Assembly: GCA_965213625.1 (NCBI GenBank)
Contig: CBDBZU010000004.1
Span: 576,001-640,000, forward strand
Reading direction: 5' to 3'
Length of the DNA stretch: 64,000 nucleotides
Source of the DNA: a bacterium
GTDB taxonomy: Bacteria > UBA8248
Shown: positions 1 to 1,693 of the stretch, piece after piece
Layout: each line of letters opens with the position of its first letter
Position numbering within the stretch: position 1 is the stretch's first letter
Notes under the pieces: generated by a model
What the model was told of the DNA's origin: nothing
The model's database searches: none
The model's input: only the letters and a program-made list of their open reading frames with translations
Translations under genes and position numbers: made by a program

Positions 1-233
1 TCGAAGCACTTGAACAGGCCATCAAAGCCCTCGAACAGGGTACAAAAGCCGACATCAAGGCTCTTGAGCAGGCCATCAAGGCCCTCGAACAGGCTACAAA
101 AGCTGACATCAAAGCTCACGAGCAGACCACCAGAGCCGACCTCGCGGCCCTCGAGCACCGGGTCACGGTCCGGCTCGGCGGACTGACCGTGGCCGGCGTC
201 GCATTCCTCGCCACACTCATCAAGTTGTTCTGA
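1..233 (+). CDS. 5'-truncated coiled-coil protein with C-terminal membrane anchor (DUF1640/CCDC90-like)
   Basis: Frame 3 is open from the window edge: EALEQAIKALEQGTKADIKALEQAIKALEQATKADIK...RLGGLTVAGVAFLATLIKLF*, with an 18-aa internal repeat and a hydrophobic tail. Confidence 0.65.
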   Translation, partial: EALEQAIKALEQGTKADIKALEQAIKALEQATKADIKAHEQTTRADLAALEHRVTVRLGGLTVAGVAFLATLIKLF

Positions 234-237
234 CCGC

Positions 238-378
238 CGCGGGAAGAAGCGCAGCGCGCGCGTCGAATTTCTTAGCGATATTGAGCGCGTAGAGGAGTTC
301 GTCCGTTTCGAAACGGGATTCGAAATCAACGACTCAACCAGGGAGCACGCAAGAGAGATGCTGGGAAAGGCGGAGTAG
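238..378 (+). pseudogene. RecN C-terminal remnant
   Basis: Translates as RGKKRSARVEFLSDIERVEEFVRFETGFEINDSTREHAREMLGKAE*, resembling the RecN tail (ERVEEIARMLGG..IT..HA.EML). An in-frame stop lies at 184-186 and there is no start codon between it and the fragment. Confidence 0.5.
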
Positions 379-457
379 CCTCTCCTCAAGTCAGCCCCCT
401 CAAGGGGGGAGTGAATAATTTTCCAATTTGCGTCCAGCTCTTTTGTATTTCCGAACG

Positions 458-1582
458 TTAGCGTTCAATCAGTGTCAACTGGGTGCCGAATTTCACGCCC
501 GCGAATTCGCAAGCGGTTTGGATCTGATCCAGCTTTTGCCCCGTGTTGCTGTTGGTTGCCAGCCACCATCCGTTCTCCAATTCCAGAGAGCTGTTAATCA
601 AGTGAGGGCTATTGATATAGAGGTCATTTCGTTTTCGCGCCACCAACCGGCGTGTTTCACTGGCCGTCTGAGCTGCGAAGCGCTCCATAAATCCAGAGTC
701 ACGCCTTGTAAATTCATTTAGCACTTCGGCCAAGGTTTGAGTAGCGTTACCTGGTGTTGCTTTCTTATCATCAAGGACAAAGCCTACTATTTGGGGTTGC
801 CAATTGCGCGTTGGTTGCGACGAGGCGGGACCCGACTCCACCGGCGGACGACGCGGGGCCGTTGAGGCAGGGGTTGACCTCAATGATCGTGAACGAGGAG
901 GTGGCTGGACAACTTCGGAAGAAAGCCTTTTCAAGAACGCTTCCACATCCTCCAGTCTCGGCCTTGTTCCGCAGGCTCTCGCGACCTCTTCCGCAAGCAG
1001 GTCACGAAGCATATCGTCGGGAGTTTCGAGCAGATTTCGCCAAACACCCGGAATGGCCTTGCGCGCTTCCCCTGACTCCCGGTTGGTCTTATGCCTTTGC
1101 TCTGCATCTCGCCGGGCATCCTCGGAAACGACTCGATTCTTCCGCAAATACATTTCCAGAGACTCCACGTATTCGGGAATTCTCTCCTCGTTCGTCAATT
1201 CCACACGATAGAATTGCCGATCGGGAGGATCACCCGCCGCCATGCTGAGGTAAAAATCCCAAAGGTTTCCGTCAGTCAGAATAAGGAACGGAACGCCCCG
1301 GTTGACGGCATATCGAAACACCTGTTCTTCGCCTTTGATGTCCACGCCGCCAAGTCCCTTGGCCTCGATAAAAACAAGCGGGCCGCCATTTCTCAATAGC
1401 GCGTAATCCACCCGCCCGCTCTCAACGGAAAATTCCGGCACGAACTCGGCGGGATCGCTATCGTCCCAATCCAAGGCACGCAGAATCGGCACGATGACTG
1501 ACTGTTTGACTTGCGCCTCATTGGTCAGTGAACCGGAATTTATGCGCTCGACCGCTATTTTTAGGACTTCCTCCAAGCTCAT
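458..1582 (-). CDS. HsdR-N-type PD-(D/E)xK nuclease fused to a SeqA-like C-terminal domain
   Basis: NEAQVKQSVIVPILRALDWD...PEF...RVDYAL...FIEAK...LTDG at the N-terminus, a Pro/Ser linker, then WWLATNSNTGQK near the C-terminus. Confidence 0.8.
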   Translation of the reverse strand: MSLEEVLKIAVERINSGSLTNEAQVKQSVIVPILRALDWDDSDPAEFVPEFSVESGRVDYALLRNGGPLVFIEAKGLGGVDIKGEEQVFRYAVNRGVPFLILTDGNLWDFYLSMAAGDPPDRQFYRVELTNEERIPEYVESLEMYLRKNRVVSEDARRDAEQRHKTNRESGEARKAIPGVWRNLLETPDDMLRDLLAEEVARACGTRPRLEDVEAFLKRLSSEVVQPPPRSRSLRSTPASTAPRRPPVESGPASSQPTRNWQPQIVGFVLDDKKATPGNATQTLAEVLNEFTRRDSGFMERFAAQTASETRRLVARKRNDLYINSPHLINSSLELENGWWLATNSNTGQKLDQIQTACEFAGVKFGTQLTLIER

Positions 1583-1693
1583 TCGTCAGATAACCTCTTC
1601 TCTGTAAACTTCGATACAAGTAAGGGACGCATATATGTCGGACATATATGTCCGACCTACACATGAATCCTCTGCCCTACTTGTCCGGCGCTT

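Follow-up and report, generated by a model that had tools for sequence, protein, structure and literature searches.

Modification-dependent restriction enzymes share a general design in which a nuclease is joined to a reader of modified bases (PMC6765204, excerpt), and the reader types named in the published excerpts available to us are SRA, PUA, DUF3427, EVE and winged-helix domains, with the C-terminal domain of SeqA (SeqA-C) not among them. SeqA itself binds hemimethylated sites and neither fully methylated nor unmethylated ones (PMC12707154, excerpt). Its DNA-binding loop contains N150 and N152, and the N150A/N152A replacement abolishes DNA binding (PMC2691817, excerpt), while R116, T117 and R118 contact the GATC sequence (PMC6225831, passage and Table 4, citing Fujikawa 2004). 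Because the RAMA domain of adenine-methylase restriction–modification (R-M) systems is stated to be fused to ‘the hemimethylated m6A-binding SeqA domain’ (m6A, N6-methyladenine; Iyer, Zhang and Aravind 2016, PMC4738411), SeqA domains in restriction-related proteins have a precedent; the excerpt of that paper does not mention a direct fusion of an HsdR N-terminal (HsdR-N) nuclease to SeqA-C. Here we describe such a fusion, encoded on the minus strand at positions 458..1582 of a 64,000-nucleotide stretch (hereafter the window; contig CBDBZU010000004.1, positions 576,001 to 640,000, or C4:576-640 kb) from a bacterium of the UBA8248 lineage. Our literature search, which did not cover subscription journals, found no description of an HsdR-N–SeqA-C nuclease. 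Judged from its sequence and predicted structure, the protein probably represents a novel type of methylation-sensing restriction enzyme; the reading that we favour, with a probability of roughly 0.45, is that of a homodimeric restriction-type nuclease guided by a SeqA-like reader, likely to hemimethylated m6A-GATC.

The gene is a single, intact open reading frame (ORF) of 374 codons with an ATG start, a TAA stop at 458-460 and no internal stop. Its product opens with a PD-(D/E)xK nuclease domain of the HsdR-N or type IIG/IIL cleavage-domain type (residues 1-130; 1193..1582, on the minus strand as are all features of the gene given below), followed by a helical region (residues 131-224; 911..1192), a disordered linker of 36 residues rich in Pro, Ser and Arg (residues 225-260; 803..910) and a domain of SeqA-C fold, the predicted DNA reader (residues 261-374; 461..802). 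An AlphaFold2 model of the whole protein, built on 40 relatives, has a predicted local distance difference test (pLDDT) score of 87.3, with helices at residues 132-223 at high pLDDT and the linker below 50; in the alignment, the linker varies among relatives in both length and sequence. The original prediction, made from the letters of the window alone, had called an intact E...D...EAK nuclease of HsdR-N type without a motor domain, a disordered linker, a C-terminal part carrying TRRLVA and GWWLATNSNTGQK, and DNA less GC-rich than the neighbouring acs. All of this was recovered: E22, D59 and E73-A74-K75 (within IEAKG) are in place, no helicase or other motor family appears among the Pfam hits of the protein, TRRLVA and GWWLATNSNTGQK lie at residues 310-315 and 338-350, and the gene has a GC fraction of 0.540, lower than that of acs (0.637) or the genome (0.591). 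The architecture, an intact stand-alone nuclease with a SeqA-fold reader as predicted from sequence and models, is as secure as computation allows.

The nuclease half matches Pfam HSDR_N (PF04313) at residues 52-111 with 39.9 bits (E = 5.6e-10; cut-off 25.1), and its predicted fold matches BpuSI (3s1s; Z 13.2), a V. vulnificus HsdR fragment (3h1t; Z 12.0), DrdV (7lo5; Z 11.5) and EcoR124I (Z 8-9). The catalytic residues, spread over 1310..1519, are E22 (1517-1519), D59 (1406-1408), E73-A-K75 (1358-1366) and Q87xxxY91 (1310-1324), the last of which we take to be the QxxxY motif of HsdR/RecB-type nucleases. Residue counts were made on 119 of the 120 best relatives, one 244-residue fragment being dropped for its length; D59, E73, K75, Q87 and Y91 do not vary in any of the 119 and E22 is shared by 118, and because of this invariance the active site looks to be under selection. 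Type I HsdR N-domains and type IIG/IIL cleavage domains are thus alike to this one in their PD-(D/E)xK fold, their D...ExK and QxxxY residues and a score above the Pfam threshold, and unlike it in that here the protein has no helicase motor, methylase or specificity domain and the window has no hsdM. A fragment of a type I R subunit was considered and rejected, the motor being absent, the ORF intact and 536 relatives being of the same length; the NCBIfam model of the EcoAI-type R subunit gives 10.8 bits against a cut-off of 550.

The gene also stands alone with respect to methylation, with no methylase within about 12 kb to its left or 6 kb to its right, and no further restriction gene lies close by. 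As had been claimed, no hsdM-type gene lies in the window: the genome's only two N6_Mtase matches are at C4:37.7 kb and 207 kb, the nearer being more than 360 kb from the nuclease gene (no separate hsdS search was made). Two type I R-M loci were seen elsewhere in the genome, at G000:C4:33291-38721 and 207356-210913, the hsdM-type match of the second carrying an in-frame TGA.

Predicting the protein in two copies gave an ipSAE interface score of 0.45 (runs 0.41-0.49) against 0.00 for the best of three controls, with runs agreeing in at least 55% of contacts and a partner pLDDT of at least 79. The mark used for this score is reached by 20 of 30 proteins solved as pairs and by 1 of 23 solved as single chains. 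The nuclease is therefore modelled as a probable homodimer, paired through residues 169-216 of the helical region.

For the C-terminal domain, the adoption of the SeqA fold had been named beforehand as one of the points on which the original prediction would stand or fall, and the SeqA-C fold was found (Z 10.7-11.4, root-mean-square deviation (rmsd) 2.4 Å, 103 residues). Modelled alone (461-796; pLDDT 96.5) and compared structurally with all 48,161 Protein Data Bank (PDB) representative chains without a Foldseek prefilter, the domain ranks E. coli SeqA (3fmt_A, Z 10.7) and V. cholerae SeqA (Z 9.9) first and second; only SeqA chains reach Z 8, the third hit is the SLED domain of Scml2 at Z 6.8 and the remainder fall below 5. 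Searching with the whole model gave SeqA chains at Z 11.4 (1lrr_A), 11.0, 10.7 and 9.9 (rmsd 2.4-2.5 Å over 98-103 residues), the alignment spanning SeqA residues 71-180, that is, its entire DNA-binding domain, at 16-18% identity in the structural alignments. Foldseek likewise ranked five SeqA chains first, with template modelling (TM) scores of 0.58-0.66.

Sequence profiles connect the domain to SeqA less directly. A profile of the C-terminal domain searched against the PDB places SeqA at the top, gapless over 87 columns, but with E = 0.23, and the same profile gathers 1250 clusters at E ≤ 1e-3 among 1.84 billion representatives. Pfam SeqA (PF03925) is matched at E ≤ 1 by 8 of 40 family members (best 6.9e-5), and its cut-off is reached by 3 of the 50 scanned profile-found clusters, at 35.9 (P0150), 26.5 (P0254) and 25.5 bits (P0131). 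Homology of the C-terminal domain to SeqA is supported by transitivity, because relatives of the same domain pass the Pfam threshold, and with the agreement of fold we take it to be a diverged SeqA-C homologue instead of a convergent look-alike. The NCBIfam model of full-length SeqA (NF008389) gives 14.5 bits against a cut-off of 185, the N-terminal part of the protein being the nuclease. As a separate observation, the SLED domain of the Polycomb protein Scml2, the nearest solved structure after SeqA, aligns over 85 residues at 8% identity, which may point to a remote relationship in fold between SeqA-C and a domain of eukaryotic chromatin proteins.

The residues with which SeqA reads DNA are largely present. 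The SeqA motifs that the original prediction gave proved correct, E. coli SeqA (NC_000913) reading GRTRVYFA and then YWVITNTNTGRK, which contains N150 and N152, and its claim that both asparagines are retained held in three independent alignments (BLASTP, hhalign and HMMER), each placing N344 on N150 and N346 on N152. The predicted DNA-reading loop (533..568), W339-W-L-A-T-N344-S-N346-T-G-Q-K350, corresponds to SeqA Y145-W-V-I-T-N150-T-N152-T-G-R-K156 (BLASTP E 3e-4), and its core TNSNTGQK is identical to TNTNTGRK of SeqA at 6 of the 8 positions of T-N-x-N-T-G-x-K. In the HMMER register, the basic strand (638..658) sets E309-T310-R311-R312-L-V-A315 against SeqA R116-T117-R118-V-Y-F-A, with T310 and R311 on T117 and R118, whereas hhalign shifts this register by one residue. 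The SeqA contact residues T117, R118, N150 and N152 are accordingly kept in the HMMER register. Among the 119 relatives, the R311 position is Arg in 111 and the first loop asparagine is kept in 93.

The host itself carries a Dam-family methylase. The original prediction had left the presence of dam as a point to be checked, and we found one D12-class methylase in the genome (G000:C4:2766687-2767412; L061:1354-2283), an orphan beside a metE-like gene with no nuclease neighbour, which scores 195 bits on TIGR00571 (NCBIfam Dam; cut-off 114.85) and shares 36% identity with E. coli Dam; among solved structures it matches E. coli Dam, M.DpnII and T4 Dam best. The block YLNRxGYNGLCRxNxxGEFNVPFGRYK, presumably the one that holds the GATC-recognition residues, is nearly unchanged between the host enzyme and E. 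coli Dam, which suggests that the host enzyme methylates GATC. A Dam-family methylase occurs in all 22 other species of the genus, carriers and non-carriers of the nuclease alike, and also in most of the family and class. If the host Dam is active, an enzyme cutting any m6A-GATC would kill its host and could not be kept.

On this basis we propose that the protein would act as a stand-alone, probably homodimeric restriction-type endonuclease in which the HsdR-N-type PD-(D/E)xK domain cuts, the helical region pairs two subunits and the SeqA-C-fold domain, tethered by the flexible linker of 36 residues, selects the DNA. For the copy in the window, the most likely ligand would be GATC with N6-methyladenine, since its reading loop is nearly that of SeqA, and the most likely state would be the hemimethylated one, since the host itself has Dam; hemimethylated m6A-GATC is favoured for this allele on both counts, the retained loop and the host Dam. 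The two tethered readers of the dimer would need two nearby sites, like those of a SeqA dimer. Cleavage would then fall on DNA that stays hemimethylated, such as single strands that enter the cell and are copied there, or invaders whose replication outpaces Dam, and fully methylated resting host DNA would be spared. Spelled out in full, as a hemimethylation-specific restriction in which a two-reader dimer cleaves DNA only where several GATC sites persist in the hemimethylated state, and in a Dam-positive host thereby detects foreign DNA that over-replicates or has just been copied while leaving the host's resting, fully methylated DNA intact, the mechanism is a good deal more speculative than the general reading, and we consider it unlikely to hold in every part.

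This outcome divides what had originally been proposed about function. The proposed architecture and the retained asparagines are supported; cutting at any m6A-GATC clashes with the host Dam, and the loop on which the proposal was built is a minority allele. Of the versions on offer, the accompanying suggestion of ‘possibly hemimethylated replicating DNA’ fares best.

A number of observations weigh against the favoured reading. Nuclease activity, dimerization, ligand and defence role are all things that we infer, and the host's own replication forks are also hemimethylated, so that avoidance of self-damage would need an unexplained safeguard. The link to SeqA is distant by several measures: Foldseek E-values for SeqA run from 4.6e-3 to 4.7e-2, with none at or below 1e-3; Pfam SeqA gives the domain (residues 277-356) only 15.5 bits (E 0.019), short of its cut-off of 25.5; hhalign to SeqA returns a probability of 6.3%; and phmmer with the whole protein and a search with the full-length profile found no SeqA in the PDB, only CorA/FAM166B noise and 3h1t. 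At the reading surface, SeqA R116 is replaced by E309 in the HMMER register, the second loop asparagine is Asn in only 20 of the 119 relatives and Ser in 81, and the exact loop of the window occurs in 4 of the 119. Most family members therefore probably read something other than the SeqA-like target. Dam-family genes score above cut-off in only 24 of 50 carriers, 38 of the 50 having a match at E ≤ 1e-3 and 12 none; the observed/expected (O/E) ratio of GATC is 0.61 in carriers of the genus (132 kb), 0.60 in non-carriers (50 kb) and 0.94 in carriers from other phyla; and PADLOC-DB 2.0 returned no family at E ≤ 1. Since the second asparagine is kept in so few relatives and the loop is so variable, reading of m6A in GATC can be proposed for the allele of the window only.

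Three readings of the specificity remain: recognition of hemimethylated sites, cutting that is blocked by methylation with Dam as the protector, or another target altogether. The last two make up the best placed alternative, which we regard as doubtful, namely a restriction nuclease of other specificity that would either cut unmethylated GATC and be blocked by methylation, the core Dam protecting the host in the manner of a split DpnII-like system, or recognize a different sequence or modification. The presence of a Dam-family methylase in 22 of 22 species irrespective of the nuclease fits methylation as protection. GATC is, with a Markov O/E of 0.60, the second most avoided 4-base palindrome of the genome after CTAG (0.48), the reader is only 16-18% identical to SeqA, and the reading loop is hypervariable, with dozens of variants among the 119 sequences. 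Against this, the window loop keeps exactly those SeqA residues that read methylated GATC. Of the 60 carrier loci, 50 were used for the Dam count (L044, L047-L051, L054, L055, L059 and L060 being left out); 12 have no Dam-family match at E ≤ 1e-3 and 26 none above cut-off, so that a GATC-cutting enzyme would be lethal in the carriers without Dam unless specificities differ. The Dam distribution shows neither linkage to the nuclease nor exclusion from it. GATC avoidance, too, was dropped as a mark of nuclease action: the depletion is genus-wide regardless of carriage, equal in carriers and non-carriers, and absent in carriers of other phyla, and is thus no sign of an enzyme acting on GATC.

More improbable is a role in chromosome maintenance or repair within a Dam-positive lineage, in which the protein would not serve defence and would stand in for MutH, nicking hemimethylated GATC, or for SeqA at the fork. 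The host has Dam, its genome (96.6% complete) has no match to MutH (PF02976) at E ≤ 0.1 and no other SeqA-domain gene, and the nuclease gene sits beside recN at the same chromosomal position in 8 related genomes. MutH is also alike in being a PD-(D/E)xK nuclease that acts at hemimethylated GATC, and unlike in reading GATC with its own catalytic domain and in needing MutS/MutL. The distribution of the gene speaks against such a role: no copy was found in 8 of the 22 species of the genus, and each of these 8 retains Dam; some copies carry stops or are split; the reader has been replaced between close relatives (in L002 the nuclease module is 84% identical to that of the window and the reader 46%); the same module occurs fused to Mrr_N (L055); and the family is spread over 12 phylum labels. 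The least probable alternative, a selfish or decayed element in the form of a homing-type endonuclease gene or a nuclease-dead DNA-binding protein, would suit a solitary gene with a GC fraction below that of its flank (0.54 against 0.64), a variable interval in which two relatives carry duplicated recN 3′ ends, and spread between phyla, but catalytic residues invariant in 119 of 119 argue against a dead enzyme, no intron, intein or transposase lies beside the gene in the window, and modular reader exchange is more typical of restriction enzymes.

The family as a whole bears the marks of exchangeable restriction genes. It counts 536 full-length relatives at E ≤ 1e-3, publicly named ‘hypothetical protein’, with only ‘hypothetical protein’ and HSDR_N clusters in the ESM Atlas, and a pattern scan of 185,579 species genomes outside the genus yielded 60 loci. 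A tree of 46 rows, made by a quick method, carries 12 phylum labels, which cluster; with 100% support a Latescibacterota copy falls among Gemmatimonadota ones, and with 95% support a Spirochaetota copy falls among Chloroflexota ones, and relatives across the 12 labels are 40-85% identical. Records of relatives include Poribacteria and Poriferisocius, taxa known from sponges, and restriction systems are described as enriched and laterally transferred in sponge-type communities (PMC8163846, excerpt); the spread of this family neatly illustrates how a single type of community can share a gene. No conserved neighbour emerged across 22 loci (133 of 146 flanking ORFs scanned; ORFs of L053 and L056 dropped for size). 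Several loci adjoin toxin–antitoxin, transposase/integrase or other R-M genes, for which a background rate was not computed; one (L014) lies between ThaI and CfrBI systems. Phage and plasmid collections gave only distant matches to the nuclease module at 26-38% identity, with 0 of 18 phage and 0 of 30 plasmid records covering at least 80%.

Readers and nucleases of the family are combined freely. The nuclease-plus-helical module occurs with Mrr_N in place of the SeqA-like reader (L055, 8001-9092) and with other C-terminal domains lacking a family assignment (L047, L048, L050, L059 and L060); readers occur in tandem, two in some proteins and five in an 874-residue one (P0122); and the SeqA-like reader is also found with HTH_17, or with Mrr_N, without the nuclease. 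In one 8-Mb genome, three tandem paralogues stand beside recN/ppnK (L021:6496-10316; G065:C43:101320-104942), all matching HSDR_N and the third having a weak SeqA match (E 0.028). For a gene that is solitary, patchy, exchangeable and laterally spread, a defence role, as far as we infer it from these patterns, is well supported.

Set beside described systems, the protein shares with SeqA-C (E. coli and V. cholerae; PF03925; 1lrr, 3fmt and 3sk7) the fold over the whole domain, the T-N-x-N-T-G-x-K loop and the equivalent of R118, as well as the general plan of a dimerizing part, a flexible linker and a reader (SeqA plan from PMC2691817, excerpt). It is unlike SeqA in its low identity and score below the Pfam threshold, in having a nuclease and helical region where SeqA has an N-terminal oligomerization domain, and in its host lineage, which, to judge from the nearest records, is not gammaproteobacterial; SeqA also lacks catalytic activity. 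With type IV and IIM enzymes (Mrr, MspJI/SRA, PUA/EVE fusions and DpnI) it has in common a nuclease with a separate reader, the absence of an adjacent cognate methylase, a solitary mobile gene and, in its Mrr_N sister, an architecture in which the reader is exchanged for one of theirs; it differs from them in using a SeqA-C fold as reader, and its modification dependence is putative. RAMA–SeqA fusions differ in that no RAMA domain was detected here.

With a SeqA-type reader, such enzymes would gain the only domain known to distinguish adenine sites that are hemimethylated from those methylated on both strands or on neither (PMC12707154, excerpt). If the favoured reading is true, it would describe a defence logic workable in hosts that themselves methylate GATC, and the enzyme could become a tool for mapping DNA that has just been replicated, or for cutting it. 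In the more speculative full form of the mechanism, such defence would read replication state instead of foreign sequence, and the enzyme would be the first nuclease with which hemimethylated m6A sites could be cut selectively. The natural reader alleles, with dozens of loop variants in 119 sequences and one, two or five readers per protein, would lend themselves to the study of target choice.

Within the genus, the gene occupies a variable interval between acs and recN (window 1-1693; G000:C4 about 575,750-577,700), where its neighbours are acs on one side and, on the other, a small coiled-coil membrane gene adjoining recN and ppnK. The order thiG-thiE-acs-[nuclease]-recN-ppnK is common to 8 related genomes, in which identity to the window is 90-97% for Acs, 71-90% for RecN, 65-89% for the nuclease module and 46-76% for the reader domain, the nuclease gene evolving faster than its flanks. 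In L036, the flanks are as close as those of L001 and the nuclease module is only 67% identical; together with the reader divergence of L002, this suggests that alleles have been replaced at a fixed site. Three reader alleles occur at this locus, of the ATNSNTGQK, QKGTRSTTKE and GTNLST types. We found the family in 14 of 22 other species of the genus. Broken copies include one with 1 in-frame TGA (L004/G052), one split in two (G051) and a second copy with 3 TGA (G053), and one genome keeps only a C-terminal remnant. In six loci (L004, L005, L020, L035, L054 and L057), the frame from the start codon stops early while the protein match continues; they may have decayed into pseudogenes, or the long-read assemblies may contain indel errors. 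In 5 non-carriers the acs-recN interval is a 607-bp stretch (one species), holds one or two coiled-coil genes (two species) or holds a 402-residue gene resembling pyridoxal-phosphate enzymes (two species). Two intervals (L067 and L069) carry a duplicated 25-26-codon recN 3′ end, which may be an insertion scar.

Around the gene itself, Rfam had no match in 14 kb and a promoter and terminator scan gave counts no higher than in shuffled sequence. A perfect 20-base palindrome, GTCGGACATATATGTCCGAC, stands at window 1637-1656, about 55 bases ahead of the nuclease start codon in the 111 bases that separate this gene from acs. A near-repeat of its second half comes after it; the palindrome could act as an operator, or as a terminator of acs that lacks a T-run. 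On the other side, window 3-233 (plus strand), running on leftward (L063:11865-12233), encodes a small coiled-coil protein that resembles CCDC90 and has a membrane helix at its C terminus. The gene is present twice in one species, and the protein contains a repeated ‘KALEQA(T/I)KADI’ unit whose number varies among relatives of 122, 156 and 174 residues.

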